Below the pieces are notes generated by a model. That model was not told the DNA's origin. It made no database searches and saw only the letters and a program-made list of their open reading frames with translations. Shown here piece after piece: positions 867-52,673 of a stretch of 64,000 nt of DNA. The translations under genes and the position numbers were made by a program. The stretch is taken from contig NZ_JABEMC010000002.1 in the NCBI RefSeq assembly GCF_013004595.1, positions 310,001-374,000 on the forward strand, in the 5' to 3' direction. This DNA comes from Brevibacterium luteolum. Lineage in GTDB: Bacteria > Actinomycetota > Actinomycetes > Actinomycetales > Brevibacteriaceae. Within the stretch, counting starts at the first letter, position 1, and every line of letters starts with the position of its first letter.

Positions 867-874
867 GGGCGCGC

Positions 875-2164: not shown

Positions 2165-2230
2165 AGCGCCGGGCCCGAGGTGGGCTGAAGCGCCGGGCCC
2201 GAGGTGGGCGAAGCGCCGTGCCCGGGCGGG
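2149..2230. repeat. 24-bp tandem repeat CCCGAGGTGGGCTGAAGCGCCGGG, three copies plus a degenerate fourth
   Basis: Units start at 2150, 2174 and 2198; the first contains the kinase stop codon. Confidence 0.9.
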
Positions 2231-2235
2231 TCAGT

Positions 2236-2255
2236 GACGTCCCCGCGGGGACGTC
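2236..2255. repeat. Palindrome GACGTCCCCGCGGGGACGTC, copy 1 (intergenic)
   Basis: Perfect 20-bp inverted repeat read directly. Confidence 0.95.
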
Positions 2256-2310
2256 TGAGCGGGGGCGTCGGCACGGAGACGTCTCGCCTGGACGGCACAG
2301 AGGAGGCACC

Positions 2311-2823
2311 ATGAGCATGACAGCAGATGAGTACACCAATGGCGATCGCGCGCCCCGTGTGCGTGTTCGAGAGGTGGCTGAGGCGGACGAGCCGCAGTGG
2401 CGGCAGCTGTTCGCTGCCTACCGGGACTTCTACCGGCTCACTCCTGATGAGTCGGTCGTCGACCGGGTGTGGGCGTGGCTCAACGATGAGGGCCATGAGC
2501 TGCGCGGGCTGGTGGCTCTCACCGATTCTGCCGAATCCGCAGGCAGACGAGGTGAGTCGATTGTGGGGATCGGGCATTTCCGCCGGTTCGCCCGCCCTTC
2601 GACGGGTTCGGTCGGGTTGTGGCTCGATGATCTCTTCACCGCTCCCGAGGCCCGCGGGCTCGGCGCCGGCAGCGCGCTCATCGACCGGATCCGCGCCGAA
2701 GCGCGCGCACAGAGCTGCTCGGTCGTCCGGTGGATCACCGCCGAGGACAACTCAACTGCCCGGTCGCTGTACGACCAGTTGGCAGTTCAGACGAACTGGG
2801 TCACCTACGACACGCAGCCCTAG
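2311..2823 (+). CDS. GNAT-family N-acetyltransferase
   Basis: AGGAGG RBS before ATG 2311; acetyl-CoA motif LDDLFTAPEARGLGAG; N..ARSLY. Confidence 0.88.
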   Translation: MSMTADEYTNGDRAPRVRVREVAEADEPQWRQLFAAYRDFYRLTPDESVVDRVWAWLNDEGHELRGLVALTDSAESAGRRGESIVGIGHFRRFARPSTGSVGLWLDDLFTAPEARGLGAGSALIDRIRAEARAQSCSVVRWITAEDNSTARSLYDQLAVQTNWVTYDTQP

Positions 2824-2850
2824 AGCAGGCGCGGTGGGAGAGCATCCTGG

Positions 2851-4530
2851 CTAGGCGGCTAAGCCGAGGTCATCCTGTGGTTTCTCGACGTCGAAGAGCC
2901 AGGAGACGCACTCTGCGAGATTGAAGCCGTAACCGCCGCCGAAGGTGCTGATGCGATCAGGTCCGTAGAGCTGCTCGAACGGGCAGGCCGTGAGATTCAG
3001 CGGCTCTGACATGACCTCGGTGACCTCGTCGAGGTCGTCGGGCGGGTGCTCCGACGGCGTCCAGTCGATGGTGTCCTGCGTGTGTCCTGGGGGTGCCAGG
3101 AGCAGATGGGTTTCGAACTTGCCGACATCCCGGCCGTCTTCGGTGAGGAAGACGAACCCGGTGCTTCCCTGCCGGGCCCCGGAGTGCGGTGCATCGGTGC
3201 GGGCGATGCGCAGGTGGTGCTCATGCACGGCGATGTGGTGGGAGCGGCACAGCAGGATGAGGTTGTCGAGGTCAGTCGGCCCTCCTTCCGACCAGGGCTG
3301 ACGGTGGTGCGCCTCCAGCCGGCGGCGTCTGCCGCAGCCGGGGAACTGGCACAGTCCCAGGTCTCGAACGCTGAGGGCCAGACGCTGTCGAGAGCTCGCC
3401 AGCCGCTTCGTCCGCCCGAGCACCAGCACGTCACCGAATCGGTCGAGTGCGGCACCGATGATCGCCGAGGTGCACGCCAGCCGGGCTGACGACTCCGCAG
3501 AGATCGCCCCGTACCCGTCGACATAGCTCTTCTGCTCTCCCGCAGACGTCCCCGCGGGGACGTCTCCGGCATCGTCGGGTACTGGCTGCGTCTGCACCTG
3601 CGTCTGTATCTGCGCCTGTTCCTGTGTCTGCACCTGTGCCTGCGCCTGCGCGAGGGTGTCGGGTGAGACGTGGACGACCATCGTCGCGCGGGCCGCATCG
3701 GTGCGTGAGCCGTTGGCTGCATCGGAGCCGCAGCGCACGAGCTCCATCAGCGCTTCGGCTTGGGTGGGGAAGCCGTCGGCGTGGACGCTGCTGGGGTTCT
3801 CCGGCACCTCTGGTTCCCCGGCAGCAGCTGCTTCCCCAGCGGCTTCGGCCTGCTCGCGGACGAGCCGGTCATGGGCGGCGTTGACCGCAGCGAGGATCTC
3901 CGCGGCCTCGGTCTCGGGCACGTCGATGAGGATCCGTGCCCGCCCCTGCCCGTTCGGCAGGACGGTGAACCGGTCCTTGTCCCCGCTGATGAGCTCCTGC
4001 CGCTCGTCATGCTTGACGAGCAGTGAGTACGTGCTCACCATCTTCGACAGCTGCTCGGCGGTGGCGAGGACGACGATCTCGGCCGCTCGCCTGCCGTCGA
4101 TGCGATCGGCGACCCGGGTGATCGCCCGGACCTTCGAATACGAGACCCGTCCGACGGCGAACAGCGAGGCCACCTCCGGCAGCTTGCGCAGCGCGCGCAT
4201 GACGCGCAGATATTCGCGTGCGGTGTGCACCTGCACTTCGCACACGAATGACACCCAGTGCGCCAGGCTGCGGATGCCGATCCAGCCTTCCCAGATGCGG
4301 GTGCGCTCGACCTCGTCGAGCAGCGCCAGCAGCCTGGCCTGACACTGCGAGACGTGCGCAATCGCCTGTTTGACGGCGAGCACGAGGGCATCCGGATCCT
4401 CACCGGCCACCCCCAGGGAGGGAAAGCCCTCGATCGTGCTCAGCCGTGCGCCGAGCTCATCGGCCCCGGTTGCTCTGCCTGTCGCGGTATCGATCTCGTC
4501 CGTCTCGGTCATATCCGTCATCGCCATCAC
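2851..4530 (-). CDS. DUF222 (13E12-like) protein with C-terminal HNH endonuclease domain
   Basis: RDLGLCQFPGC...HHRQPWSEGGPTDLDNLILLCRSHH; N-terminal SLAHWVS...G.VSYSKVRAI typical of DUF222. Confidence 0.88.
   Translation of the reverse strand: MMAMTDMTETDEIDTATGRATGADELGARLSTIEGFPSLGVAGEDPDALVLAVKQAIAHVSQCQARLLALLDEVERTRIWEGWIGIRSLAHWVSFVCEVQVHTAREYLRVMRALRKLPEVASLFAVGRVSYSKVRAITRVADRIDGRRAAEIVVLATAEQLSKMVSTYSLLVKHDERQELISGDKDRFTVLPNGQGRARILIDVPETEAAEILAAVNAAHDRLVREQAEAAGEAAAAGEPEVPENPSSVHADGFPTQAEALMELVRCGSDAANGSRTDAARATMVVHVSPDTLAQAQAQVQTQEQAQIQTQVQTQPVPDDAGDVPAGTSAGEQKSYVDGYGAISAESSARLACTSAIIGAALDRFGDVLVLGRTKRLASSRQRLALSVRDLGLCQFPGCGRRRRLEAHHRQPWSEGGPTDLDNLILLCRSHHIAVHEHHLRIARTDAPHSGARQGSTGFVFLTEDGRDVGKFETHLLLAPPGHTQDTIDWTPSEHPPDDLDEVTEVMSEPLNLTACPFEQLYGPDRISTFGGGYGFNLAECVSWLFDVEKPQDDLGLAA
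3544..3565. repeat. Palindrome AGACGTCCCCGCGGGGACGTCT, copy 2 (inside HNH gene, encodes DVPAGTS)
   Basis: Perfect 22-bp inverted repeat. Confidence 0.95.
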
Positions 4531-4577
4531 GGTCCCCTGTCACCGGGCAGTCACCTGCCCATTCGATACGTACATCC

Positions 4578-4599
4578 ACGCTAGACTCCGGCACTGACA
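4578..4599 (-). promoter_or_regulatory. RecA-NDp/PafBC-type DNA-damage promoter of the HNH gene
   Basis: Minus strand TGTCAG-N10-TAGCGT matches the TGTCRG-N10-TANNNT consensus. Confidence 0.7.
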
Positions 4600-4654
4600 T
4601 CGTGGGCTGACCTGGGGCGATGATGGCGAGCGGGGAACCCGCCGGCCAGTCAGC

Positions 4655-5536
4655 TCAGCGGCGGCCACCACCTCGGGAACGGCCACCTCGGGAACGGCCA
4701 CCTCGGGAACGGTCGCCTTGGGAACCGGTGCCGCCACGCGGTGACCAGCCGCAGCCAGCGACCAGCGCGTAGAGGCCAGCCCACTGCTCAGCCGACAGGT
4801 CCTTGGGCAGGGTGCTCGCGCCGAGGCCCTCGCGGGCCAGCCAGCCCTTGACCGCCTGACGGGCGCGCTGCCCGACGATCCGGCTGAGGATCTCGGGCAG
4901 CCCGCGCCCGCGGCCGGTGAACACCGCGTGGACGAACCCGCGGTAGGCCCGCCGGTCGCTTTCGGCGAGCAGGGGCGCAGCGCGCCGGGTCATCCGCAGC
5001 ATCCCGCCGTCGACGCTCGGCATCGGCCGGAAGGCACTGCGAGGCACCCGGCCGAGCAGCGTGAAGTCGATCCACGGCCACCACTGGGCGGTCATCATCG
5101 AGGCACCGCCCACCCCGGCCCGGCGCCGGGCGACCTCCCACTGCACGAGGAGCACCGCCTCCTGCCAGTGCGGGATCGGCAGGATGTGGCGCAGCATCGC
5201 CGTCGTCAGGTGGTACGGCAGATTGCCGACGATGACGCATCTGCCGGCCGGCAGATGCCAGCGCAGGAAGTCGGCGGTGACGATCTCGACCGGCGGCCCG
5301 TCGCTGGGTGCGGTGAGCTCGCGGCGCAGCGCGGCGGCGTTGCGCGGGTCGATCTCCACCGCAGTGAGAGGCCGGCCGAGCGCGGCGAGCCGGTGTGTCA
5401 GGGCGCCGCGGCCGGGCCCGATCTCGATGATCGGTCCGCGGGATTCGGCGACGGCGCCGATGAGGGTGGTGATGGTGTGTGAGTCGATGAGGTAGTTCTG
5501 GCCGTGCTCATGACGGCCGCCACGATACGTGGGCAT
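4655..5536 (-). CDS. erm: Erm-family 23S rRNA adenine-N6 methyltransferase (MLSB resistance; N-terminus resembles Erm(36)/Erm(X))
   Basis: GRHEHGQNYL, IEIGPGRG, AVEID, GNLPY, VQWEVARRRAG, AFRPMPSVDG; upstream leader peptide. Confidence 0.9.
   Translation of the reverse strand: MPTYRGGRHEHGQNYLIDSHTITTLIGAVAESRGPIIEIGPGRGALTHRLAALGRPLTAVEIDPRNAAALRRELTAPSDGPPVEIVTADFLRWHLPAGRCVIVGNLPYHLTTAMLRHILPIPHWQEAVLLVQWEVARRRAGVGGASMMTAQWWPWIDFTLLGRVPRSAFRPMPSVDGGMLRMTRRAAPLLAESDRRAYRGFVHAVFTGRGRGLPEILSRIVGQRARQAVKGWLAREGLGASTLPKDLSAEQWAGLYALVAGCGWSPRGGTGSQGDRSRGGRSRGGRSRGGGRR
4668..4727. repeat. 15-bp tandem repeat CCACCTCGGGAACGG, three copies plus one degenerate (RSRGG tail of Erm)
   Basis: Units start at 4668, 4683, 4698 and 4713. 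Confidence 0.9.
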
Positions 5537-5664
5537 GATGTGGGACGCTCCGAAGAAGTCTGGCGTCCGGGCAGCACAATGTCTCCGCCCGGCTGGTCAC
5601 AGCGGAGCGGCGAAACCTGGGAATGGGGAATTCGAAGCAGGGTCCGCCGCTCAGAAGCGGAGAC
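5537..5664 (-). promoter_or_regulatory. erm translational attenuator (alternative hairpins)
   Basis: Complementary pairs 5657-5664/5581-5588, 5644-5652/5605-5613, and 5563-5568/5543-5548, the last enclosing the GGAG SD. Confidence 0.72.
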
Positions 5665-5695
5665 GGCCCCAAACGATAGCCTCAGTTGCTGACAT
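5651..5695 (-). CDS. erm leader peptide MSATEAIVWGRLRF (alternative in-frame ATG at 5698)
   Basis: Translated by hand; ends in the RLR macrolide-arrest motif; too short for the ORF track. Confidence 0.8.
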   Translation of the reverse strand: MSATEAIVWGRLRF

Positions 5696-8469
5696 CATGA
5701 TGACACTGATGATACCGGTCCCGAGGCGGTGGTGTCGATGTCGACCTCGTCGAGGCCGTCGTCGTCGAGTTCGGCATCGGAGGCCACATCGAGCAGCTCG
5801 TCGAGCTGCTGGGCAACACGGATGTAGCCCAGGTGCGAGTACGCCTGCGGGTGGTTGCCCAGGTGCTGTTCGGCGATCGGCTCGTACTCCTCGGGAAACA
5901 GGCCGGTGGGCCCCATGAGGTTGTCGAGCCGCCGGAACAGGTCGCGGGCATCGGCGATCCGCCCGACCTTGATGAAGGCCTCGATGAGCCAGGTGGTGCA
6001 GATGTGGAAGCCGCCTTCGAGTCCGGGCAGCCCGTCATCGTAGTGGTAGCGGAACACCGTCGGCCCGACCCGCAGGTCGCGTTCGATCGCGTCGACGGTG
6101 GCGATGAACCGCTCATCGTCTGCCGGCAGAAGGCCGGAGAGCCCGACGAACAGGCAGGCCGCGTCGAGGTCGTCCTCGCCGTAGGCCACCGTGTAGGCGC
6201 CGACCTTCTCATTCCAGCCGCGGGTGATGACGTCCTCGGCGATGGTTTCGCGCAGCCGCCGCCACGCCCCGGGCATCGTGCGGCCGAACCGCTCGGCGAT
6301 CCGGATCGCCCGGTCGACGGTCACCCAGCACATCACCTTCGTGTATACGTTGTGCTTCGGGGCCCGGCGGGCCTCCCAGATGCCGTGGTCGGGTTCGTGC
6401 CAGCGGCGCTCAACGGCAGTGACCATATCGCAGGTGAGCTTCCAGTTCTCCTCCGACAGCGTGCCGACGGCCGCGGTGAAGTCGTCGAGCAGCTCGGTGA
6501 CCGGGCCGAACACGTCGAGCTGCACCTGATGCTCAGCGGCGTTGCCCACCCGCACCGGCCGCGAGCCCGCATAGCCGGGCAGATGCTCCAGCACCGCCTC
6601 GGTCGTGAGCGCTGAGCCGTCGACGGCGTAGAGCGGGTGGAGCTGTTCGGGCCCGACCGTCATCTCCAGGATCCCGGCCAGCCATGCCAGGAAGCCCTCC
6701 GCCTCGGCGGTGGAGCCCAGGCTCAGCAGGGTGCGCACGGTCATCGAGCCGTCGCGCAGCCAGCAGTAGCGGTAGTCCCAGTTGCGGATGCCGCCGATCC
6801 CCTCGGGCAGGGAGGAGGTCGCGGCGGCGAGCACGCCGCCGGTGGGCACGTGGCACAGGGCGCGCAGGGTGATCGCCGAGCGGGTGACCTCGTCGGTCTT
6901 GAGTTCGGGCAGGGTGAGGCCGGTGACCCAGTTGCGCCAGTAGCCGGCCGCGCGCCGGCGCACGAAGGACTCTCCGCCGGCGAGCAGGTAGTCCGTATCG
7001 GCGAAGGACCCGCCGCACACGAGCACCAGCACGAGCTTGGCGCGCTCCTGCGTGGTCGGCACGACGCGGGCCACGGCGGTGTCGGAGCCGTCTTCGCTGA
7101 TGATGTCGAAGTCGACGCCGGGAGCGTGGAGCATCACCGGCTCCGAGGTGCCGAGCACCCGCACACCGTCGCCGACCTTCTCCAGCCGGATCGGGTACGA
7201 GCCGAAGTCCGGGCGCGGGGCGAACCGGATCTCGGCCTCGGCGTCGCCGGTGAGCACGCGCACGAGCACGGTGTCGAGGCTGTCCTCGGACACCGGGGCG
7301 AGGTAGTCGCGGGCGGTGAGCCCGGCCCACCGGGTCTCGACGATGGTGGTGTCGCGCTGATAGCGCTGGGTCAGCGACTTCTGCTTGCGGGCATCCGCGC
7401 CCGAGGCGGTGGCTGGGGCGACCGAGTAGTAGCCGGCGGCTGGGGAGCCGAGGATCTCGGAGAACAGGGAGGCCGAGTGGGGCAGTGGGTGCGGCATCCA
7501 GCAGATCCGGCCGCCGGGGTCGATGAGCGCGGTCGACTGCCCGTTGGCGAGTATCGAGTGCCGTTCGATCGGCACGGCGGTCTGGCCGAACAGCCAGGAG
7601 CGGCGCAGCTCGAAGATGCTCGAGAGCACGAGCGAGACGGTCTCGGGGTCGGCAAGCTGGAAGCCTGCGGCGGTGTCGACGCAGGGGCGGCCGGAGACGG
7701 CCTTGCGGCAGTCGAGCGGGGCGACCGTGATGCCCAGGTCGGTGCTCGTCAGGGTCTCCAGAGCCCGCTCATCTGAGGTGTCGTCGCCGATGTAGACGAC
7801 CGCGGCCGCTCCGAGGCGTTCGCGCAGCCCATTCAGCGCCTCGCCCTTGGTGGATTCGACGACGGTGAGGTCGGCGACCTCTTTGCCGCGGACCACGGAC
7901 ACGGCGACGTGCCGGGCCATCTGCGTGATGCCGGCTTCGACGACGGCCCGGGCATCGGGGTCGAGGCCGCGCAGATGCACGGCCACACCGGTGGGTTTGA
8001 GCTCGAACTGCGCCTCGGGCACCATCCGCGCCAAGGAGGCCACCGACTGCTGCAGGTCCTTCAGGGCCGCCTTCGCCTCGGCGTCGAGGGCGTCGATGGC
8101 GTCGATATCGGTCTCCGAGCCGTGGGAGCCGACGAGATGGACCTCACGCGGCAGCCGCGACATCGCTGCGAGGTCGCGCAGGGACCGGCCGGAGATGACC
8201 GCGGCGTTGGTGTCGGGCAGGGCGGCCAGTGCGCGCATGCTGATGAGGCTGATGGGCAGCGGATAGGCGTGGGTGGGCTTGTCGACGATCGGAGCGATGG
8301 TGCCGTCGTAGTCGGTAGCGATGAGCAGCTTGGGGGTCCGGGCCAGGCGGACGATCTCTGCGAACAGCTCGGCATCAAGGGTGCGGGCGGCCTCGGCGAG
8401 GTCGCCGAGCGGGCCCGAGGTGGGGGCTGCGGGATCCCAGGAGTCGAGCAGGTCGAGAGATGCGGTCAT
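5695..8469 (-). CDS. Trehalose-6-phosphate phosphatase (HAD) fused to a GH15 trehalase-like glycoside hydrolase
   Basis: DYDGTIAPIV, ISGR, GSHG, YIGDDTSDE (OtsB-like); RNWDYRYCWLRD, PDHGIWE, GNHPQAYSH (GH15). Confidence 0.9.
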   Translation of the reverse strand: MTASLDLLDSWDPAAPTSGPLGDLAEAARTLDAELFAEIVRLARTPKLLIATDYDGTIAPIVDKPTHAYPLPISLISMRALAALPDTNAAVISGRSLRDLAAMSRLPREVHLVGSHGSETDIDAIDALDAEAKAALKDLQQSVASLARMVPEAQFELKPTGVAVHLRGLDPDARAVVEAGITQMARHVAVSVVRGKEVADLTVVESTKGEALNGLRERLGAAAVVYIGDDTSDERALETLTSTDLGITVAPLDCRKAVSGRPCVDTAAGFQLADPETVSLVLSSIFELRRSWLFGQTAVPIERHSILANGQSTALIDPGGRICWMPHPLPHSASLFSEILGSPAAGYYSVAPATASGADARKQKSLTQRYQRDTTIVETRWAGLTARDYLAPVSEDSLDTVLVRVLTGDAEAEIRFAPRPDFGSYPIRLEKVGDGVRVLGTSEPVMLHAPGVDFDIISEDGSDTAVARVVPTTQERAKLVLVLVCGGSFADTDYLLAGGESFVRRRAAGYWRNWVTGLTLPELKTDEVTRSAITLRALCHVPTGGVLAAATSSLPEGIGGIRNWDYRYCWLRDGSMTVRTLLSLGSTAEAEGFLAWLAGILEMTVGPEQLHPLYAVDGSALTTEAVLEHLPGYAGSRPVRVGNAAEHQVQLDVFGPVTELLDDFTAAVGTLSEENWKLTCDMVTAVERRWHEPDHGIWEARRAPKHNVYTKVMCWVTVDRAIRIAERFGRTMPGAWRRLRETIAEDVITRGWNEKVGAYTVAYGEDDLDAACLFVGLSGLLPADDERFIATVDAIERDLRVGPTVFRYHYDDGLPGLEGGFHICTTWLIEAFIKVGRIADARDLFRRLDNLMGPTGLFPEEYEPIAEQHLGNHPQAYSHLGYIRVAQQLDELLDVASDAELDDDGLDEVDIDTTASGPVSSVSS
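5709..5738 (-). promoter_or_regulatory. Sigma-A-like promoter for leader-erm inside the 3' end of the upstream gene
   Basis: Minus strand TCGACA-N18-TATCAT, 10 nt before the ATG at 5698. Confidence 0.55.
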
Positions 8470-8573
8470 GGTGTCCTCGTGGTGCAGGTGGTGCGGGGGC
8501 GCCCGGTGGGCAAAGCGCATTCAGTGTAGTGGCTTGCCCGCGCCCAGGCGAACGGCCGCCTGCCGCCGGTGTC

Positions 8574-9053
8574 TCAGCGCCTGCCGAGCAGGTGGTCGGG
8601 GAAGCGGTCGCGTTCGTAGGTGACGGTGTCGTAACCGTGTTCGACGGGCCGGCCGTGCTCGTCGAGGCCGACGAAGACGATCTTGTCGATCGAGAGGATG
8701 ATCTCGCCGGTGATGATGTTGCGGACCTGGCAGCGCATCGTCAGGGAGGTGCGCCCGAACTTCACGGCCACCAGCCCGATCTCGATGATGTCGCCCTGGG
8801 TCGCGGAGGCAAGGAAGTTGATCTCGGAGATGAACTTCGTCACGATCCGCTGGTTGCCCAGCTGGATCATCGCGTAGACGACAGCTTCGTCGTCGATCCA
8901 GCGCAGCAGCGAGCCGCCGAACAGGGTGCCGTTGGCGTTGAGGTCTTCGGGCCGCACCCATTTGCGGGTGTGGAAGTTCATCGCCGGGCGGCCGGCCTCG
9001 TCGCGGGCAGTGGATTCGTCGGTGCCGAGCAGGGGATTCGTCGCGTCGCTCAT
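8574..9053 (-). CDS. Acyl-CoA thioesterase (hotdog fold)
   Basis: DLNANGTLFGGSLLRWIDDEA, GDIIE, GRTS. Confidence 0.9.
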   Translation of the reverse strand: MSDATNPLLGTDESTARDEAGRPAMNFHTRKWVRPEDLNANGTLFGGSLLRWIDDEAVVYAMIQLGNQRIVTKFISEINFLASATQGDIIEIGLVAVKFGRTSLTMRCQVRNIITGEIILSIDKIVFVGLDEHGRPVEHGYDTVTYERDRFPDHLLGRR

Positions 9054-9062
9054 GTGCCCAGT

Positions 9063-9761
9063 CTAGGCATCGGGGTTCGCGGCGGGGTCGGTGGCCGGTC
9101 CCGAGGCGGTGGTGCGGCGGGCCTGGGAGCGGCGGGAGTAGCCGCCGAGCATGTAGAGCACGCCGGAGGCGAGCATGCCGGCGCCGGTGAAGCCGATGAC
9201 GGTCAGTGCTCCCATATCGTCGCCGAAGGCGATGATGATGCCGATGAGGGCGTGGATGCCTCCGACGATGAGGAAGTCCGAGGAGCTCGGCAGGCTGCGC
9301 ACCAGCGACCACAGCCACAGTTCGCAGGCGGCGTGCAGCAGCGCCCACACCGCGACGGCGGCGCGCAGCTGGCCGGGCTGTTCGGCGAGGAACAGGAAGA
9401 TGATCGCCGGGATGACGATGACCGCCTGGCCGAGCACCGGGGTGCGGGCGGAGGTGGTGACGGCGCGGGCGAAGCCGAGGATGAGCAGACCCTGGACGAC
9501 GAGGTAGCCGATGAGCAGGTAGTCGGCGGTGTCGACGCGCAGGGCGAGCTGAGCGGGCCCGCCGATCTGCTCGCGGGGGAAGAAGACGGTGACGATGCCG
9601 AAGATGAATGCCGCGGCACCGCGGGCGAACATCCACGTGCCGCGGGCGGACTGACCGGCCCGGATCTCAGCTGGGCTGACCGCCTCATCTGCGCTGTGCG
9701 TCTCGTCTGCGCTGTGCGTCTCGTCGGGCTCTGGTGCTCCTGCGGGGGTATCAGACATCAC
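9063..9761 (-). CDS. Membrane protein (HdeD/DUF308-like)
   Basis: About six hydrophobic segments; W-FARG N-terminal motif. Confidence 0.6.
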   Translation of the reverse strand: MMSDTPAGAPEPDETHSADETHSADEAVSPAEIRAGQSARGTWMFARGAAAFIFGIVTVFFPREQIGGPAQLALRVDTADYLLIGYLVVQGLLILGFARAVTTSARTPVLGQAVIVIPAIIFLFLAEQPGQLRAAVAVWALLHAACELWLWSLVRSLPSSSDFLIVGGIHALIGIIIAFGDDMGALTVIGFTGAGMLASGVLYMLGGYSRRSQARRTTASGPATDPAANPDA

Positions 9762-9828
9762 CGCCCAAGTGTAGCGGCAGGCCCACGCGGTGCGGATGCC
9801 AGCGTCGACGGGCCTGACCCGCCCGACA

Positions 9829-9866
9829 AATCCGTACTTTCAATAATTCCGTATTTCTTGTATAAC
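9829..9866 (+). promoter_or_regulatory. Direct repeats TCCGTA(C/T)TT and -10 TATAAC of a leaderless regulator gene
   Basis: AATCCGTACTTT and ATTCCGTATTTC 17 bp apart; TATAAC 9861-9866 lies 6 nt before ATG 9873. Confidence 0.55.
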
Positions 9867-9872
9867 TGGGGT

Positions 9873-10481
9873 ATGACCGATTCTGCTCCCGATGCACTGC
9901 GCGAGCGGCTCAGCGCGCTCGAAGACCGCATCGCCGCCCTCGAAGCACGCCAGCCCGGCACCGCCGCCGACCCAGCACCCGCCGACCCGGCACCGGGAGG
10001 CCCCGCTTCACCGTACGGATCTGAGGCAACGCCACACGGATCTGAAACGCCAGCACCGCCCGCGGTGGATCCGGCGCGCAGCTCGCTGTGGGCGCTCGAG
10101 GGTCTCAAACAGGCCACCGGCGGGGCCGGCGGGATCCTCTTCACCGGGGATCTGCCGCAGACTCCGGCCGGTCCGGTGTCCTGGCAGTACGGGCGGCCGG
10201 CCGGCTACATCGACGACCTCGACTTCACCGCCGCCGCCACCAGGCTCGACGCCCTCGGCCACCCCGTGCGGCTGGGACTGTTGCAGGAGATCTACCTCGG
10301 CACCACCTCGGTCGCGGGGCTCTCCGAGCTCGGCCGCTTCGGCTCGACCGGGCAGATCTACCACCACCTGCAGCAGCTGGCGAGCGCCGGCTGGCTCGAA
10401 TCACCGCAGCGCGGGCAGTGGCGCATACCCGTCGAGCGCGTCATCCCCGTCCTCACGATCATCATCGCCGCGGTCGGCTGA
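9873..10481 (+). CDS. ArsR-family winged-helix regulator
   Basis: ALGHPVRL...STGQIYHHLQQLASAGW; start reassigned within ORF 8460..10481. Confidence 0.85.
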   Translation: MTDSAPDALRERLSALEDRIAALEARQPGTAADPAPADPAPGGPASPYGSEATPHGSETPAPPAVDPARSSLWALEGLKQATGGAGGILFTGDLPQTPAGPVSWQYGRPAGYIDDLDFTAAATRLDALGHPVRLGLLQEIYLGTTSVAGLSELGRFGSTGQIYHHLQQLASAGWLESPQRGQWRIPVERVIPVLTIIIAAVG

Positions 10482-10536
10482 GCGCCGTCCTGCCACCGAC
10501 TCGCCGCTTTCCGTCAGCAACGCACAGGAGGGACGC

Positions 10537-11697
10537 ATGGCTTACCGCACCTCGCCCACCGAGCACCCGAACACCGAGCACCCGAACACCGCCCACCCGA
10601 GCACCGGCCGCACACCGCGGCGCTTGCTGTGGCCCGGCGCTGCCGCACTCGCCGTGGCGCTGCTGCTCACCGGTCTGTCCCCGCTGTTCCCGCGCCTCGG
10701 CGCACCGACCGGTGACCGCGCGCTCGGAGAAGCGGTCATCGAGGCCGTCGGCTCCCGCGACCGCCATCATGTCGCGATCGCGCAGGTGACGCCGGGTGGC
10801 GATGAGATCCGGTATGCCGGTTTCGGTGCAGATGCGCACACCGAGTTCGAGATCGGCTCGATCACGAAGACCTTCACCGCCGTGCTGTTCGCGCAGGCGA
10901 TCGAACGCGGCGAGGTCACCGCGGACACGACGCTCGGCGAACTGTTCGGCCCCGCGGCCGGCGCCGCCTCCGAGGTGACCCTGCTGCAGCTGGCGACCCA
11001 CACCTCGGGGCTGCCGCGGCTGCCACCGGGGAACCCGCTGCCGAATTTCGTCGCCGCGGTGCTGCACACCGATCCGTACACGGAATCCGCTGACGATCTG
11101 CTCGCCGGGCTCTCCGACATCAGCACCCCCACCGCCGTCGCAGCCGACGCCGCTGCAGGCGAGTACTCGAACTACGGCTACGCCCTGCTCGGCCTCGCAC
11201 TGGCCCAAGCGGCAGACACCGACTATCCGCGTCTGCTGCAGGAGCGGATCCTCACCCCGCTCGGCATGGACGATACATATCTGCCCGTCGAACGCGGCGG
11301 GTTGAGCGCCGGAGCCCCGCGCGGCCTGGCCGCCGGCGGCATCCCCGCCTCACCGTGGACGATGGCTGCCAGCGCACCGGCCGGGGGCATCCGCTCGACT
11401 GCAGCCGATATGGCCCGGTACCTGCAGGCGGTCATGACCACCGACCTGCCCGGCAGCGGCGACGCGACCACACCGCACGCCCTGCTCAATGAGGAGACGG
11501 AGATCGGATACGGCTGGCTCATCGAGGCCCAGGCGGATCCCGCACTGACATTCCACAACGGCGGCACCGGGGGTTTCCGCTCGGTAACCGGATTCACCGC
11601 CGACGGTGCCGGACTCGTCGTGCTCAGCGACACGACGCGCTCGGTCGATGCCGCACTCGATCTGCTGAGCACGCCGGCCGGGAAGGAGACCTCATGA
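10537..11697 (+). CDS. Serine hydrolase, beta-lactamase/AmpC-like family
   Basis: FEIGSITK (SxxK), LATHTSGL, YSN, HNGGTGG; AGGAGG RBS; N-terminal TM. Confidence 0.88.
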   Translation: MAYRTSPTEHPNTEHPNTAHPSTGRTPRRLLWPGAAALAVALLLTGLSPLFPRLGAPTGDRALGEAVIEAVGSRDRHHVAIAQVTPGGDEIRYAGFGADAHTEFEIGSITKTFTAVLFAQAIERGEVTADTTLGELFGPAAGAASEVTLLQLATHTSGLPRLPPGNPLPNFVAAVLHTDPYTESADDLLAGLSDISTPTAVAADAAAGEYSNYGYALLGLALAQAADTDYPRLLQERILTPLGMDDTYLPVERGGLSAGAPRGLAAGGIPASPWTMAASAPAGGIRSTAADMARYLQAVMTTDLPGSGDATTPHALLNEETEIGYGWLIEAQADPALTFHNGGTGGFRSVTGFTADGAGLVVLSDTTRSVDAALDLLSTPAGKETS

Positions 11698-12074
11698 CCC
11701 TGTACGCGACCATCGTCTTCCTCGGACTCATCGTCTTCTACGCCGCCGTGGCGGTATGGCGAGCGCGGCAGGCCAGCCGCGCAGCCGCGTCGGTCTCGCG
11801 CCTCGGGCTCATCGTCTCGATCGCGGCAGCCCTGGCGGTCTTCGTCTTCCAGTGGATGCTCGTGAGCCTGCCCAGCTGGGCGTATCTCATCTGGGTGCCG
11901 GCAGCCCTGGCCCTCGTCTACGCCACGTTCGAGGCCGTGCGCATCGGTCCGCAGCTGCCGTGGCTCAGGCCCGGCCACCGGCGCTCTGACATAGCCGCAG
12001 CGCTGGCTGAAGGGACGTTCGCGCTGCTCGTCATCGCAGCCGTGGTCGCCTCTGTCGTCCTGGCGCTGCAGTGA
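11694..12074 (+). CDS. Small membrane protein
   Basis: ATGA overlap with the hydrolase; four hydrophobic segments. Confidence 0.7.
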   Translation: MTLYATIVFLGLIVFYAAVAVWRARQASRAAASVSRLGLIVSIAAALAVFVFQWMLVSLPSWAYLIWVPAALALVYATFEAVRIGPQLPWLRPGHRRSDIAAALAEGTFALLVIAAVVASVVLALQ

Positions 12075-12078
12075 AACC

Positions 12079-12498
12079 TCAGGCGTCTCCGGTCATGCTG
12101 ATCGTCAGCTCATCGCCTGACTGCGTGATCTTCGCGGCGGCTAAGCCGGTTTCGGCTGGGCCGGAGAGCGGCTCTCCGGTCTTCGGGTCGAACCGGGAGC
12201 TGTGACAGGGGCAGATGATCTCCTCTTCCGTCACCGTCTGCACCAAGCAGCCCTGGTGCGGGCAGATCGCGTTGAACGCGTGGAAGTCCCCCTCGGTGGG
12301 CTGGGCGACGACGTACCGGTCGTCGACGACGACACCTGAGCCGACCGGCACCTCGGCCGCGGCCACGGTCGAGGGCTCGACGATGTCGTCGTCAGTGCCC
12401 GAGCAGCCTGACAGCGCTGCAGTCCCGCCGATGCTGGCGGCACCACCGGCCAGGGCTGACAGCTGCACCATGCGCCTGCGGCTCATCTCGTTGCTCAT
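12079..12498 (-). CDS. Tat-exported Rieske 2Fe-2S (lipo)protein
   Basis: SRRRM signal, LSGC lipobox, CPHQGC and CPCHSSRF motifs; start reassigned to ATG 12498. Confidence 0.88.
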   Translation of the reverse strand: MSNEMSRRRMVQLSALAGGAASIGGTAALSGCSGTDDDIVEPSTVAAAEVPVGSGVVVDDRYVVAQPTEGDFHAFNAICPHQGCLVQTVTEEEIICPCHSSRFDPKTGEPLSGPAETGLAAAKITQSGDELTISMTGDA

Positions 12499-13166
12499 GC
12501 GTTCTCTTCTCCTGTCCTGCTCTTCCCTCGCGGGGTCACGGTGTCCTCGATGACGAGCCTGCCGCTGCCGCCGGGGCTCGTCCATTTCCCGCGCAGCGCA
12601 TCGGCTTCGTCGACGCCCTGCATCATCGTGCGGTCGACCGGCGTGCCGACGGGGATGACGCTCAGCGTCCCGCTCGGCTCCAGGATGACACACTGGGCGT
12701 CCTGCAGCCGTCCCAGCCCCGCCCTGCGCACGGCGATCTGCACATCATCGGCGGTGACGTGCACGCGCCGCATCACCCGGGTGAGCATCGCGCCGTGGGC
12801 GACGATGAGGATCGGCTGGTTGTTCAGCGCCCGGTGCATCGGCAGAGAACTGCGCAGCGCCCCGAACAGCGCCTCCAGGCACATGAGGGTGACGAGCCCG
12901 ATCGCACCGGCGGAGACCGTCGGCGGGTGTCCGATGATGACCCGGCCGGCGACCGCACCGACCATGATGGCGACCACAGCGTCGAAGCTCGTGATGCCGG
13001 AGAGGACGCGGGCGCCGAAGATCCGCAGCAGGATGACGAAGACGGCGTAGATGAGGATCGCGGAGACGATGACGACGGGGATCCGCCACAGTTCGATGCC
13101 GAGCGTCTCGAGCAGCGCCGCCTGCCAGCCCTGCGGCGGAGTCAGGGACACGACGGCAGGGGTCAT
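12495..13166 (-). CDS. DUF421/YetF membrane protein
   Basis: LLRIFGAR..S..TSFD, three TMs, ILEPSGTLSVI. Confidence 0.85.
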   Translation of the reverse strand: MTPAVVSLTPPQGWQAALLETLGIELWRIPVVIVSAILIYAVFVILLRIFGARVLSGITSFDAVVAIMVGAVAGRVIIGHPPTVSAGAIGLVTLMCLEALFGALRSSLPMHRALNNQPILIVAHGAMLTRVMRRVHVTADDVQIAVRRAGLGRLQDAQCVILEPSGTLSVIPVGTPVDRTMMQGVDEADALRGKWTSPGGSGRLVIEDTVTPRGKSRTGEENA

Positions 13167-14260
13167 CGGAGCACCTCGCGCAGCACCGGCCAGGTGCGCT
13201 TCATCCGTTCCCGTCCGTAGGCGGCGCGCGGATCATCGGCCCGGGCGGTGAGTGTGCGGGAGGTCCAGATGCAGGCATTGAGGCACAGCCGGGTGAACGC
13301 GGCGTGCTCGATGAGGCCGAGCTCGGTTCCCGTCAGCTCGGCGGGCGTGCCGGCGACAGCAGTCTGATAGGCGGCCACGGCCTGGCGCAGTGCTGTCAGC
13401 GGCCGGTCCGTGCCGAGCATCGTGTAGGCCGCAGCGATCGCCAGCTCGGCCACCCGTGGGGCGGTGCGCGCATCGCCGAAGTCGATGATCCCGGTGATCT
13501 TCCCGTCGCCGACGAGCAGATTGAAGTCATTGAGGTCCTGGTGGACGACCTGCCTCTCAAGCCCGTCCAGCTGCGGGACGATGTCGGCCTCGAAGCGCTG
13601 CGCGGCCGCCCGGGCCAGGGCGAGGTCGCCGGAGAGCTGGCCGCTGACCTCGGCCGCAACCTGTCCGGCGGCTTCGAGGCTGGCGATGCGCTGACAGGCG
13701 AAGAGGACGTTGGCACCGGTGGTCTCGAACGACCAGGGGTGCACCATGGGACCGGGTTCCCCGGCCATGCCAGCCAGTGCGTTGACCACCGCAGCTGCCG
13801 TCCGGCCCACCTGGGCGGGGTAGTTCTCGGGCAGGTGAGCGCCGGCAGCGACCCGGCCGGGCAGGTACTCCTGGATGCGTATGAGCGCCGGCTGCGTCCC
13901 CGCGGGGACGTCGACGCTGGCGACGAACGGCCGGTGCTCCTCCCCTGCCCGGGTGTGGCCCGCCTCGGCGACCCCCGCGTCGGCAGCGGCGTCTGTCAGG
14001 GCCGGGACCTGGCCGGCGACCGGCAGGCAGGCCCGGGCAGCGGTCTCCTGCACGCGGGTGATCCAGTCGATGTGGCCCGGGCTCATCGTGCGGGTGGGGT
14101 ATTCGGCCTTGAGCACGTAGTCGCGGCCGGCGGCGCGCAGGCGCACGTTGATGGCGATCTCGCCGGGCAGGAACTCGCCGACCTCGGCGTCGAGGCCGAA
14201 GTGGGTGCGGCAGATCTCGGTGAGCTCTGCGGCGGTGAGCGTGTGCAGCGGCCGGTTCAT
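13163..14260 (-). CDS. APH-superfamily phosphotransferase (hydroxylysine-kinase-like)
   Basis: HQDLNDFNLL and GIIDFGD motifs; start reassigned to ATG 14260. Confidence 0.82.
   Translation of the reverse strand: MNRPLHTLTAAELTEICRTHFGLDAEVGEFLPGEIAINVRLRAAGRDYVLKAEYPTRTMSPGHIDWITRVQETAARACLPVAGQVPALTDAAADAGVAEAGHTRAGEEHRPFVASVDVPAGTQPALIRIQEYLPGRVAAGAHLPENYPAQVGRTAAAVVNALAGMAGEPGPMVHPWSFETTGANVLFACQRIASLEAAGQVAAEVSGQLSGDLALARAAAQRFEADIVPQLDGLERQVVHQDLNDFNLLVGDGKITGIIDFGDARTAPRVAELAIAAAYTMLGTDRPLTALRQAVAAYQTAVAGTPAELTGTELGLIEHAAFTRLCLNACIWTSRTLTARADDPRAAYGRERMKRTWPVLREVLR
13895..13910. repeat. Palindrome CGTCCCCGCGGGGACG, copy 3 (inside kinase CDS, encodes VPAGT)
   Basis: Perfect 16-bp inverted repeat. 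Confidence 0.95.
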
Positions 14261-14330
14261 ATGTTCAGGGTATCGGTTCGGGCCGGTGGAATCTGTACCG
14301 TCCGGGCTGAGGATGTGGGACGCTGGGGCC

Positions 14331-15632
14331 ATGGCGCAGATGCACATGGCCAACGCCTTCGATCCCGAATCCGCTCCCGAGGTGCCGGCGCGCACGGCTG
14401 CCCTGCTCGCCCGGCGCGACGCGGCGCTGTCATCGAGCTACCGGCTGTTCTACCGGGAGCCGGTCGAGGTCGTGCGCGCCGAGGGCGCGTGGCTGTACGG
14501 CTCGGACGGCCGCCCGCACCTGGACATGTACAACAACGTCCCGGCGATCGGGCATGCGCATCCGGCCGTGACCGAGGCGGTGACCCGGCAGCTGGGCCGG
14601 CTCAACACGCACACCCGGTATCTGACCGAGGGGATCCTCGACTACTCCGAGGCCCTGCTGGCGACCTTCCCGGCGGCGCTGGACCAGGTCACCTATGCCT
14701 GCTCCGGGTCCGAGGCGGTGGACCTGGCGGTCCGGATGGCCCGGTTCGCCACCGGTCGTGAGGGTGTCATCATCTCCGCCAACGCCTACCACGGCACAAC
14801 GGCGCTGGCAGCGAGCCTGTCGCCGAGCCTGGGGGTCAACAATCCCATCGCCGAGGCGGTGGCGAGAGTCGACATGCGTCCGGGGATGAGCGTGGAGACG
14901 CTGGCCGCTGAGGTGCGGGCGGCAGCAGCCGATCTGGAGGCGCGCGGGCACGGGGTGGCGGCGGTGATCTTCGATTCGATCTTCTCCTCTGATGGGGTGC
15001 TACCCGAACCGGTGGGCGGCTTAGCCGCTGCTGCAGATGTGGTGCGGGCCTTCGGCGGGTGTGTCATCGCCGATGAGGTGCAGGCCGGGTTCGGGCGCAC
15101 CGGTACGATGTGGGGGTTCTCCCGGCACGGCATGGAGCCGGATCTCGTGGTGCTCGGCAAGCCGATGGGCAACGGGATGCCGATCTCCGCGGTCGTCAGC
15201 CGGCGGGAGATCTCCGATGCGTTCGGCGCGAGTGTGCGCTATTTCAACACCTTCGGCGGCAATCCGGTGTGCATCGCGGCAGCCCAGGCAGTCCTCGATG
15301 TCATCACCGGGTCGCTGCTGGCCCGGCATGCAGAGCAGCTCGGGCAGGTGCTCGCCGACGGCTTAGCCGTTCGTGCCGGGCGCACCGACCTGCTCGGGGA
15401 TGTGCGAGCGGCCGGGCTGTTCGTCGGCGTCGATGTGCGCGGGTCCGCTGCGCGGCCACCGGCTGAGGCCGCTGCGGCGATCGTCAACGGGCTGCGCCAA
15501 CGCCGGGTGCTCATCTCCGCCTCGGGACCGGGCGCCGATGTGCTCAAGATCCGCCCGCCGCTGGTCTTCGATGAGCCCGAGGCCGAGGTGTTCTTCGCAG
15601 CACTCGACGACACGCTCGACGAGCTGAGCTGA
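14331..15632 (+). CDS. Class III PLP aminotransferase / phospho-lyase (AGXT2L-like)
   Basis: LDMYNNV..GHAHP, DEVQAGFGRTG, LGKPMGNG, FNTFGGNP, LKIRPPL. Confidence 0.88.
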   Translation: MAQMHMANAFDPESAPEVPARTAALLARRDAALSSSYRLFYREPVEVVRAEGAWLYGSDGRPHLDMYNNVPAIGHAHPAVTEAVTRQLGRLNTHTRYLTEGILDYSEALLATFPAALDQVTYACSGSEAVDLAVRMARFATGREGVIISANAYHGTTALAASLSPSLGVNNPIAEAVARVDMRPGMSVETLAAEVRAAAADLEARGHGVAAVIFDSIFSSDGVLPEPVGGLAAAADVVRAFGGCVIADEVQAGFGRTGTMWGFSRHGMEPDLVVLGKPMGNGMPISAVVSRREISDAFGASVRYFNTFGGNPVCIAAAQAVLDVITGSLLARHAEQLGQVLADGLAVRAGRTDLLGDVRAAGLFVGVDVRGSAARPPAEAAAAIVNGLRQRRVLISASGPGADVLKIRPPLVFDEPEAEVFFAALDDTLDELS

Positions 15633-15641
15633 TCCGGCGAC

Positions 15642-15659
15642 ACGTCCCCGCGGGGACGT
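15642..15659. repeat. Palindrome ACGTCCCCGCGGGGACGT, copy 4 (between convergent genes)
   Basis: Perfect 18-bp inverted repeat. Confidence 0.95.
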
Positions 15660-16483
15660 CACCTGCCGGCACTGGGCGGGCGGCCATCGTCGCCGGTCTC
15701 CCCCGCCTCGGGCGCGGTGTCCGTTTTCGAGGCGGTGGTGTCCTCGGAGGTGACCTCGTCGATGACCTCGCGGGCGACCTCTCGGGCGGTTTCCTTGGCC
15801 CGGCGCACCGGTGCGCGGAAGGCTGAGGCGGTGCGCTTCATGCCGGCGCCCACCCCGCGGTAGCTCCATCCGCGGATGCTGCCTGGGGCCCGCCAGCCGC
15901 GGAGCCAGGCGGTGAGCCGGAAGGCGAAGACGACGCTGGCGGCGGCAATCGTCACCCACACGTTCCAGATGCTCGTCTGCTGGCCGAGTGCTGCCAGCAG
16001 TGCACCGCAGAAGGCGGGGATGATGTAGAGCTCGGAGCCGGAGAACACGGCCGGGATCTCGTTGGCGACGACATCACGCATCAGCCCGCCGCCGACGGCG
16101 GTGATGATGCCGAGCATAATCGAGCCGTAGACGTTCATGCCGTGCTCCAAGGCGATGATCGTGCCGGTGGTGCAGAACAGCGCGAGGCCGGCGGCGTCGA
16201 AGATGACGATCGGCAGACGGGCGCGTTCAGTGTGCCGGCCGATGAAGTAGACGAGGAGGGCGGCCAGCAGCGGGATGAGCAGGTAGATCGGCTCGCGCAG
16301 CGACGTCGGCACCTCACCGAGGACGACATCGCGGATGATGCCGCCGCCCAGGCTGGCAAGGTAGCCGAGCACCACCCCGCCGGTGATGTCGAAGTCCTTG
16401 CGCGCGGCGAGCAGGTTGCCCGAGATCGCGAAGGCGAAGACGCCGACGAGTTCTAAGATGAACAGTGCGACTGAGACGTTCAC
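15659..16483 (-). CDS. Trimeric intracellular cation channel family (YadS/UPF0126) protein
   Basis: FAISG, GGGIIRD and GGGLMRD repeats. Confidence 0.88.
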   Translation of the reverse strand: MNVSVALFILELVGVFAFAISGNLLAARKDFDITGGVVLGYLASLGGGIIRDVVLGEVPTSLREPIYLLIPLLAALLVYFIGRHTERARLPIVIFDAAGLALFCTTGTIIALEHGMNVYGSIMLGIITAVGGGLMRDVVANEIPAVFSGSELYIIPAFCGALLAALGQQTSIWNVWVTIAAASVVFAFRLTAWLRGWRAPGSIRGWSYRGVGAGMKRTASAFRAPVRRAKETAREVAREVIDEVTSEDTTASKTDTAPEAGETGDDGRPPSAGR

Positions 16484-16532
16484 GGCCTCAGCCTACGTCA
16501 CGCGTCACATGCTCGGTCACCGGCTGCTCCTG

Positions 16533-16548
16533 CGTCCCCGCGGGGACG
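16533..16548. repeat. Palindrome CGTCCCCGCGGGGACG, copy 5 (intergenic)
   Basis: Perfect 16-bp inverted repeat. Confidence 0.95.
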
Positions 16549-16583
16549 TGGTTGGGGCGTCGAACGATCTGGAAAGTCGGTAC

Positions 16584-17507: not shown

Positions 17508-17688
17508 GCCACTGAGTCTAGGCCGCTGCCAGGAACCCGGCCAGACTGTCCGACCAGGCTGTCCGGCCAGGGAACTCTGAGGTTCGGCTGACTGATATTC
17601 CAGCTTCGCTTGCTTGTGTGGGTCATGGCCGGTCACCCACGGCCGGTCGGAGAACGCACAGATCCCAAGTCGTCAGAAAGGTGGATCC

Positions 17689-18408: not shown

Positions 18409-18443
18409 CCTGCACATACCCGCGCACGCTGTGTGCATGAGAC

Positions 18444-18476: not shown

Positions 18477-18503
18477 TCGTGTCTTCAGACGAGATGGCGG
18501 GGT

Positions 18504-50158: not shown

Positions 50159-50172
50159 GTTTCACGTGAAAC
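50159..50172. promoter_or_regulatory. parS site 1
   Basis: GTTTCACGTGAAAC. Confidence 0.95.
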
Positions 50173-50349
50173 ACCCATCAGAGCTGCCATCATTGTTGCT
50201 TCGATGAACTGATGTACCGACCGCGCAGTTAGTGCAAGCCCATCCCTGGTGGATGTAGCTCGTGATGACCCTAGCCTCGCTGCCATCGTCGACCGGAATA
50301 CAAACGGCTCGCTCTCGTCAGCGTTCTATGCGGCCGACAGCCGAAAGAT

Positions 50350-50363
50350 GTTTCACGTGAAAC
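50350..50363. promoter_or_regulatory. parS site 2
   Basis: GTTTCACGTGAAAC. Confidence 0.95.
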
Positions 50364-50364
50364 G

Positions 50365-50394
50365 GAAGGGCCCCGGCATGTGCCGGGGCCCTTC
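50365..50394. terminator. Hairpin between cwlM-like gene and parB
   Basis: GAAGGGCCCCGGCA/TGCCGGGGCCCTTC. Confidence 0.85.
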
Positions 50395-50414
50395 GTGTAT
50401 CTAGCTGTATTGTG

Positions 50415-52497: not shown

Positions 52498-52659
52498 ACA
52501 GAACTCCGTTCATCAACAAGAGCCGACTGGCTCGCAAACCGTCTCTAAGTCTACCCAAGTACAAGGACATCAGCAGACAAGAATGACGCGACTTCAGGCG
52601 TCAAAACGAACGACTCTAGGCGAAGCGCCGATCGTCCACCGGAGCAACTGGAATTCGAT

Positions 52660-52673
52660 GTTTCACGTGAAAC
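52660..52673. promoter_or_regulatory. parS site 6
   Basis: GTTTCACGTGAAAC, upstream of parA. Confidence 0.95.

Follow-up and report, generated by a model that had tools for sequence, protein, structure and literature searches.

We analyzed a 64-kb stretch of the 2.97-Mb genome of Brevibacterium luteolum (positions 310001–374000 of contig C12, hereafter the window), in which a perfect 16-bp palindrome recurs around a gene encoding a DUF222-HNH protein. The gene occupies 2851..4530 on the minus strand, and its 559-amino acid product matches Pfam PF02720 (46.3 bits, cut-off 24.4) and PF01844 (37.3 bits, cut-off 21.4) and shares 93% identity with a protein named from B. luteolum. A scan of the whole window placed exact copies of the 16-mer at 2238, 3547, 13895, 15643, and 16533, with no further match at two or fewer mismatches, in full agreement with the original prediction made from the letters of the window. 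The palindromes, which have no strand, are perfect over 20, 22, 16, 18, and 16 bp, respectively. Site 1 (2236..2255, core 2238–2253) lies between a sensor-kinase and a GNAT acetyltransferase gene, ∼600 bp past the stop codon of the DUF222-HNH gene, and site 2 (3544..3565, core 3547–3562) is within the DUF222-HNH gene. Site 3 (13895..13910) is read in frame in a phosphotransferase gene, site 4 (15642..15659, core 15643–15658) abuts a stop codon between convergent aminotransferase and transporter genes, and site 5 (16533..16548) is intergenic. Three copies are intergenic, as first described, that at 2238 provided that the GNAT gene starts at ATG 2311. Both coding copies encode VPAGT. They had been described as linkers, which holds for site 2 (residues 324–328 of the DUF222-HNH protein, in a disordered stretch with a predicted local distance difference test (pLDDT) score below 50) but not for site 3, which corresponds to residue 163 of the phosphotransferase frame, the first residue of the Pfam APH match. 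This peptide appears to form a turn at the domain edge and not a free linker.

A fifth-order Markov model predicted 0.00003 copies of the 16-mer per 64 kb and 0.0014 per genome; the earlier rough expectation was under 0.001 copy per window. Shuffled windows contained 0.23 matches on average, and none of 100 shuffles reached 5. Mapping of the 16-mer across the genome, as had been proposed, revealed 10 exact copies, along with 2 that differ at one position and 8 that differ at two; the five exact copies outside the window lie on contigs C2 (twice), C12 (position 186750), C17, and C21. The 16-mer is the commonest perfect 16-bp palindrome of the genome, ahead of parS, and the placement of 5 of the 10 copies within 14.3 kb did not arise in any of 200,000 random-placement simulations. 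A terminator or known RNA was also considered and rejected, with no terminator-like site in 2000–5800 and no Rfam match in 1–20000.

Comparison of genomes gives good support to the view that the site and the DUF222-HNH protein belong together. Among 61 genomes of the genus, 49 contain the exact 16-mer, with 0–31 copies each, tandem pairs included. The GTT variants proposed along with it are nearly absent, with one copy apiece in 6 of the 61 genomes only. An orthologue of the gene is present in 37 of the 61 genomes, and the median number of 16-mer copies is 12 with the gene and 1 without it. In 400 other, random actinobacterial genomes, the 14-bp core reaches at most 3 copies per genome. At the 30 orthologue loci that were fetched, we observed a perfect or near site inside the frame or within ∼900 bp in all but one internally deleted copy. 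We then considered 160 homologous loci from genomes and metagenomes, five of which are Brevibacterium and may overlap with the genus sample. A perfect 14-bp palindrome centered on CCGCGG or CAGCTG stands near the gene in 132 of them, with 198 sites in 387 kb near the gene versus 26 in 384 kb of outer flank. VPAGT and VSAET, named at the outset as peptides of other DUF222 proteins, were indeed found in 49 and 18 of 120 homologues, respectively. A search for plasmid carriage gave no match among 72,556 plasmids, and one phage record matched.

The codons used indicate that the DNA palindrome is conserved, not the peptide alone. In the 30 Brevibacterium orthologues, 25 of 28 VPAGT peptides are written in exact palindromic codons, for which codon usage predicts 0.5%, and across the 160 loci palindromic codons were used in 37 of 38 VPAGT and 62 of 70 VSAET peptides. 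Conservation of the palindrome in orthologues, which had been suggested as a check, is thus borne out. Site variants differ by mirror changes, and some of these changes are silent in both halves: VPAGT is encoded by either GTCCCCGCGGGGAC or GTTCCCGCGGGAAC, and VSAET by either member of the mirror pair GTTTCCGCGGAAAC and GTTTCAGCTGAAAC. We also counted three variants in 50 genomes, 29 of which carry one of them at the locus and 28 of these also copies outside it. Away from the locus, the variant found at the locus was also the most frequent one in 25 of the 28 genomes (179 copies versus 12). Within the B. luteolum genome, the gene at 2851..4530 is the sole carrier of the site among six DUF222 genes; because the other five lack it, the palindrome appears to be a trait of one DUF222 subfamily. 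Two near-identical DUF222-HNH paralogues with 531-aa frames (C1:182409–184004 and C12:214927–216522) share another 20-bp coding palindrome, which occurs only twice in the genome.

Across several phyla, the sequence of the site follows the variant of the gene and the identity of residue 102, a histidine in the window's protein (codon 4225..4227, minus strand) located in the first turn of the predicted recognition helix. In the initial genome set, all 8 proteins with a GTC-type site had His-102, and the other proteins had GTT in 40 of 40. The rule held prospectively: of 80 new metagenome loci, a site was present at 48, among which the two His loci carried the window's variant and 45 of the 46 others had GTT. 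Two His-type genomes were tested blind, of which one contained three perfect copies and the other imperfect ones only. Proteins with Arg-102 lacked any site that matched the initial definition of the family, and a blind palindrome search at their loci found GGTTCCGCGGAACC or TGTTCCGCGGAACA. Over all loci, Arg-102 was accompanied by G at position 6 from the center in 23 of 24 cases, Gly-102 by T at that position in 54 of 57, and His-102 by GTCCCCG in 10 of 11. Residue 102 ranked at the top of 68 columns for the position-6 base in 93 non-redundant proteins (z = 19.7, from shuffles that ignore kinship). A tree of 86 of these proteins, computed with the DNA-binding region excluded, shows 9 changes in each trait and a mismatch between the two in 1 row, and none of the independent pairs on well-supported branches contradicts the rule. 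The residue aligns right after the equivalent of ParB Arg-173, at the ParB 174 equivalent. This position fits a role in reading the site because the neighboring Arg-173 of ParB bonds the outer G of parS (PMC7383237, available text). The comparison gives good support to a contribution of residue 102 to the choice of outer bases in the site. Two more pairs covary, namely site position 4 with residue 136 and site position 2 with residue 158. Further site types, GCTTCCGCGGAAGC and GATTCCGCGGAATC, occur at several loci (L181, L196, L215, L232, L087, and others) where residue 102 is Val, Thr, or Lys. At L018, L019, and L020 (genomes G017, G056, and G018), asymmetric CGTCACAGCGGGGACG or CGTCCCAGCGGGGACG takes the place of the perfect site, together with tandem arrays with a period of 14 or 16 bases.

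Residue 102 belongs to a putative ParB/Noc-like DNA-binding domain (residues ∼60–175; 4006..4353, minus strand), which we recognized from the structure model, structural matches, and an alignment to the ParB encoded in the window. The model has pLDDT values of 92–98 (blocks of ten) over residues 61–170, with a single helix preceding the DNA-binding domain, and is good over the HNH domain. In an unbiased structural search, ParB, Spo0J, and KorB ranked first for residues 60–190 (Z 5.5–6.6). A second comparison gave Z values of 8.1 for Noc 7ng0 (root mean square deviation 2.8, 101 residues aligned), 8.0 for 7ol9, 7.7 for Spo0J-parS 4umk, and 7.2 for ParB-parS 6t1f; values for Noc, ParB, and Spo0J ranged from 6.4 to 8.1 across ∼93–103 residues. 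Support from sequence was weak: the alignment to the window's own ParB showed 26% identity over 62 columns (E value 0.0066), and a profile comparison scored 20.8, with shuffles at 16.3 at most. We found no match to the ParB_N CTPase domain in the DUF222-HNH protein, whereas the window's ParB has one. An Atlas search gave no significant ParB match, and a single-sequence model of residues 41–192 was poor (pLDDT 64), matched helical hairpins only, and was uninformative.

The second domain (residues ∼380–460; 3151..3393, minus strand) was assigned as an HNH nuclease from Pfam, residue conservation, and structural matches, and resembles McrA, Cap5, and type IV restriction nucleases in structural and profile matches. 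In 113 homologues, Cys-394, Cys-399, His-408, His-409, Cys-428, His-432, and His-436 are invariant, and Asn-423 and His-431 nearly so. The catalytic and zinc residues thus appear intact, and we predict that the protein is a nuclease. Modeling also supports a homodimer, with a score of 0.70 versus 0.00 for the best control; 20 of 30 solved pairs and 1 of 23 single chains scored as high, and the runs share at least 73% of their contacts with pLDDT of at least 63. Together, the linkage, the variant match, the predicted ParB/Noc-like fold, and the covariation with residue 102 support the proposal, already made from the window, that the DUF222-HNH protein is the likely binder. The palindrome is very probably its cognate binding site.

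The surroundings of the gene suggest how the cluster came about. In 26 of 30 Brevibacterium orthologue loci (among L016–L045), the gene lies directly upstream of imuA′-imuB. In B. luteolum, imuA′-imuB-dnaE2 is on another contig (C15, ∼350,000–355,800), where 10.5 kb contain no DUF222-HNH gene and no site within 3 mismatches. The window's gene stands in a block with the GNAT acetyltransferase gene (2311..2823, plus strand) and, directly upstream, an Erm-family 23S rRNA methyltransferase gene (4655..5536, minus strand; NCBIfam Erm23S_rRNA_broad, 266 bits, cut-off 212), and this block is missing at the syntenic locus of two more distant relatives, G056 and G017. The interval of sites 3–5 has no site in 8 relatives (G056, G017, G018, and five complete relatives). 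At the phosphotransferase site, two more distant relatives have VDVDGT or VDIDGS at the orthologous position and no site, and the change is a substitution without target duplication; at other coding sites, the difference is a replacement of equal length or a short insertion in a loop. A close relative carries a 2.6-kb insertion at the point of site 4, and site 5 is exactly kept in two relatives, in one of which the flanks have diverged and different DNA lies beyond. The cluster may well be the local imprint of a gene that came from the imuA′-imuB-dnaE2 locus, in which case its near-oriC position would be incidental and confined to this lineage.

Sites also differ between species with and without the gene. 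Over 16 comparisons in two close relatives, 10 perfect sites were kept, 4 were imperfect, and 2 were lost by deletion. In one clade, defined by ImuB similarity and composed of kin that are not independent, 11 gene-less species have a median of 7 perfect sites and a perfect fraction of 0.50, and 25 species with the gene have a median of 12 and a fraction of 0.65 (0.61 with two gene-borne copies taken out). Outside this clade, 13 gene-less genomes contain 0–2 perfect sites. We found no gene remnants near the sites of one gene-less genome, and among the matches listed for 24 gene-less genomes, a search for hidden orthologues gave HNH-half matches only. These data suggest that sites accumulate around the gene wherever it resides and deteriorate after its loss. 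The two closest relatives, L128 (G052) and L126 (G044), have a broken gene (internal deletion; two frames) and 9 perfect sites each.

We further noticed signs of a link to DNA damage. A LexA-like box stands upstream of the gene in 46 of 139 loci compared with 4 of 78 control windows; at the Brevibacterium loci, the box lies between the 3′ end of the DUF222-HNH gene and imuA′, that is, before imuA′. Outside Brevibacterium, imuA/B genes are neighbors in 3 of 155 loci, with the homologue between imuA and imuB at L086 and L203 and before imuB at L237. No conserved partner was detected among 127 neighboring genes, which included no ParA and no cognate methyltransferase, and a search of PADLOC defense models returned 0 families at an E value of 0.01. 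One site falls in an insertion in DnaE2 of genome G033. Near distant homologues (L066, L070, L089, L092, L098, L099, and L055), genes for Ku, PriA, UvrB, UvrA, spore photoproduct lyase, and DnaB recur, as counts taken without a background.

With regard to cutting, three sites coincide exactly with junctions of variable DNA, and some sites show short tandem duplications. A site pair at C2:72099 and 72133 (L251) marks, to the base, the edge of a low-GC island that contains Vsr-like, type II restriction, and cytosine methylase genes. In two relatives, different genes extend up to that very base, and in two more distant ones the DNA at this point is variable and without a site.

We propose that a homodimer of the DUF222-HNH protein would read the two half-sites through its ParB/Noc-type helix-turn-helix, without a CTP clamp and with an HNH nuclease attached. 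The in-gene and upstream copies would let the protein limit its own expression. Less securely, the active protein, damage-linked in many homologues, may nick or cut near bound sites, and repair may occasionally write a new site into tolerant DNA such as spacers, loops, and tails, mostly near the gene. Sites would be kept while the protein is present and would decay after its loss. We hold this account in its entirety, from cognate binding and self-restraint to nicking with site writing and the relocation footprint, with moderate confidence, lower than that for cognate binding.

Several observations weigh against this account or parts of it. For the residue 102 rule, well-supported branches carry no more than 2 independent pairs for Arg and 3 for His, too few for significance, and one His-102 protein has GGTCCCG. 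Three Brevibacterium with His-102 have an asymmetric site variant and 0–2 perfect sites. Three genomes broke or tied the variant match, and some of the copies outside the locus sit in paralogous copies of the gene. For the fold, Z values of 6–8 for a helical domain are in the range that the tool calls common, Foldseek returned nothing at an E value of 0.001 or better, hhalign probabilities were only 6–10%, and a profile search of the PDB gave no ParB. For cutting, 4 of 33 synteny breaks at 87 site-centered loci fall within 30 bp of a site, approximately what gene-boundary sites would give by a rough estimate. Four other strains are collinear over the gene, and no site-to-site excision was seen among the joints listed for their contigs. 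Perfect extensions of at least 24 bp were found in 14 of 37 sites of at least 20 bp and in 8 of 23 other palindromes of the genome. The window's gene has no LexA-like box in 4301–4800 at two or fewer mismatches, searched with a consensus that may not be that of the host. Finally, the relocation is a single event, and 8 of 24 gene-less genomes still hold 5–12 perfect sites. We do not claim the sites as recombination hot spots, given the 4 of 33 breaks despite three striking junctions, and we dropped perfect extensions of 24–50 bp as a sign of nuclease fold-back, as they are no commoner than in control palindromes.

The original prediction went further and suggested that the sites mark an origin-proximal domain. 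Its parallel with parS is supported: the window also encodes dnaA and parAB, with six true parS (50159..52673, unstranded), a separate system used here for comparison only, and three of the six fall in parB and read VSRET. A second parS-like system marking this domain would agree with the distance of 34–48 kb between parS and the palindrome cluster, which holds five of the ten copies, with the ParB-type domain in the predicted binder, and with a mild origin-side excess of site clusters. However, the sites in seven complete relatives are distributed all around the chromosome, and only 1 of 104 comes within 60 kb of parS. The orthologue is at the terminus in 5 of the 5 complete relatives having it (0.94–1.0 of the origin-terminus distance, calculated from lengths that are partly rounded), and in the complete relatives 19 of 85 sites lie within 20 kb of the gene. 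The origin-side excess, 43 of 70 collapsed clusters in the origin-proximal 40%, carries little weight, as the genomes share ancestry; clusters are sparse at 0.6–0.8 of the origin-terminus distance (5 of 70), yet present at the terminus around the gene. Moreover, the predicted binder has neither a CTPase domain nor a ParA partner, and a canonical parABS is already in the window. The spread of the sites and the terminal position of the gene led us to reject an origin-domain marker; this part of the original prediction is largely refuted, and such a system is highly improbable.

An alternative that shares the cognate binding is a domesticated DNA-damage factor, which would dock on dispersed sites as Noc does on Noc-binding sites (NBS) and aid repair or error-prone synthesis, its sites arising from mutation and selection and not from nuclease writing. 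The imuA′/imuB neighborhood in and outside Brevibacterium, the excess of LexA-like boxes, the many coding sites that are same-length substitutions in loops, the retention of sites in close relatives, and the plasmid and phage searches are consistent with it. Nevertheless, we regard it as rather unlikely, since the gene is absent from 24 of 61 genus genomes and broken in the two closest relatives, no conserved partner was detected, the Brevibacterium LexA box precedes imuA′ and not the gene, and selection alone does not explain clustering where the gene moved. That the palindrome is a repeat like the repetitive extragenic palindromes (REPs), spread by another enzyme or by hairpin errors with the DUF222-HNH gene as a tolerant landing place, appears improbable: such a repeat would fit the dispersed copies and tandem pairs, the copies that lie in spacers or encode loops of unrelated proteins, the persistence in gene-less species, and the existence of intragenic REPs (PMC3733652, available text), but not the tracking of the gene's variant and of residue 102 across several phyla, nor the five other DUF222 genes that have similar linkers without the site. 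It would also leave unexplained why the palindrome has no unpaired tag, stem, or loop of the kind described for CGTC-REPs in the available text of PMC3733652. A role in defense or self-marking, in which chromosomal sites would hold or license the nuclease and DNA without them, or with them unprotected, would be cut, draws on the likeness of the HNH domain to McrA, Cap5, and type IV restriction nucleases, on the patchy distribution, and on the site pair that borders a restriction-modification island to the base. It too has a low probability, given the PADLOC result and the lack of a cognate methyltransferase among the neighbors; a 14–16-bp site is too rare in invaders, and ten sites would not suffice for marking 3 Mb.

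Returning to cognate binding by the DUF222-HNH protein, the closest known systems are ParB-parS, Noc-NBS, and KorB-OB, which share with it a loopless 14–16-bp palindrome with the same outer frame. According to the available text of PMC7383237, the consensus is TGTTTCAC–GTGAAACA for parS and TATTTCCC–GGGAAATA for NBS. ParB-parS and Noc-NBS further resemble the present system in the DNA-binding fold and dimer (both predicted here), in coding sites that include the binder's own gene, and in the few specificity residues, and the dispersal of the palindrome is closer to that of NBS than to that of parS. They differ in that the present protein has no ParB_N CTPase and no ParA but a C-terminal HNH domain, and that the element is patchy, mobile within chromosomes, and not tied to the origin. 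With respect to ParB, the covarying residue adjoins the Arg-173 equivalent, and the Gly-201 equivalent is an invariant Ser. By analogy, the system may act like Noc-NBS or ParB-parS, but it departs from them in the CTPase and in the relation to the origin. ParB-CTPase-HNH fusions (PMC12704722) also join a ParB-family part to HNH; there the part is the CTPase fold, here it is the DNA-binding domain without CTPase, and the available text of PMC12704722 does not mention DUF222.

Among nucleases and repeats, the protein is a member of the DUF222/13E12-HNH family (REP13E12 of Mycobacterium tuberculosis), with PF02720 followed by PF01844; the site is documented here for one subfamily, and five paralogues in the genome are without it. 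In the available text of PMC3592412, DUF222 is named only as a domain fused to HNH, and a 2026 preprint (PMC13061034, available text) states that REP13E12 regions “lack defined biological function” and describes them as gene-conversion hot spots. Neither the palindrome nor a ParB-like domain in DUF222 was described in the literature searched, which comprised few subscription papers and no supplements, or in the available text of PMC10589994; nor did that literature describe the residue code, relocation, or decay. REP-RAYT systems (in which RAYT denotes the REP-associated tyrosine transposase) and CGTC-tagged REPs are alike in having short dispersed palindromes with species-specific variants, copies around a nuclease gene, and some coding copies. 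A REP forms a stem-loop and carries a GTAG or CGTC tag that stays unpaired, and CGTC-REPs have an 8–9-bp stem, a 4–5-nucleotide loop, and no dedicated transposase (PMC3733652, available text). In contrast, CGTC is here part of a loopless palindrome, and the associated gene encodes an HNH nuclease with a predicted double-strand reader and not a RAYT, with the comparison confined to this gene and not extended to RAYTs elsewhere in the genome. RAYTs are HUH enzymes that act on single strands. Homing and HNH nicking endonucleases resemble the present protein in the long recognition site, the zinc-binding HNH, and a gene that changes position. A homing endonuclease gene interrupts its own site and so protects itself, whereas the gene described here keeps intact sites in and around itself and the host keeps more.

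Genes of the DUF222/13E12-HNH type abound in Actinomycetota and other phyla, and no function has been assigned to them. A predicted site, a predicted dimeric ParB-type reader, and a residue rule (His, Arg, or Gly at position 102) make this large unexplained family accessible to a short binding experiment that includes its own specificity controls. If correct, cognate binding would add a CTP-independent nuclease to the ParB/Noc family, would account for the VPAGT/VSAET-type peptides of unrelated proteins as translated DNA sites, and may provide a compact nuclease with a 14–16-bp site. A broader reading, which we consider possible but doubtful, is that the subfamily is a widespread class of site-writing nucleases with a ParB-derived reader and a residue-to-base code. 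Under DNA damage, and possibly with the ImuA′BC mutasome, such nucleases would make and maintain their own palindromes chromosome-wide and use them to move and reshuffle neighboring genes. This would amount to a new semi-selfish element, distinct from REP-RAYT and homing endonucleases, and to a naturally reprogrammable long-site nuclease scaffold.

Other features of the window were noted in passing. The erm gene at 4655–5536 is of the macrolide-resistance type, scores below the cut-off of every named allele, and is covered in four other strains. A second repeat with the core ACCGCCTCGG has ∼500 matches in the genome, including window positions 2150–2207, 4668–4707, 5720, 7400, and 17851, and looks like the ordinary REP-like family of the species. 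Finally, the block at 9800–12080, encoding an ArsR-like regulator and a beta-lactamase-like protein, shows 73–78% identity to close relatives compared with 88–95% around it, which suggests that it was replaced by recombination.

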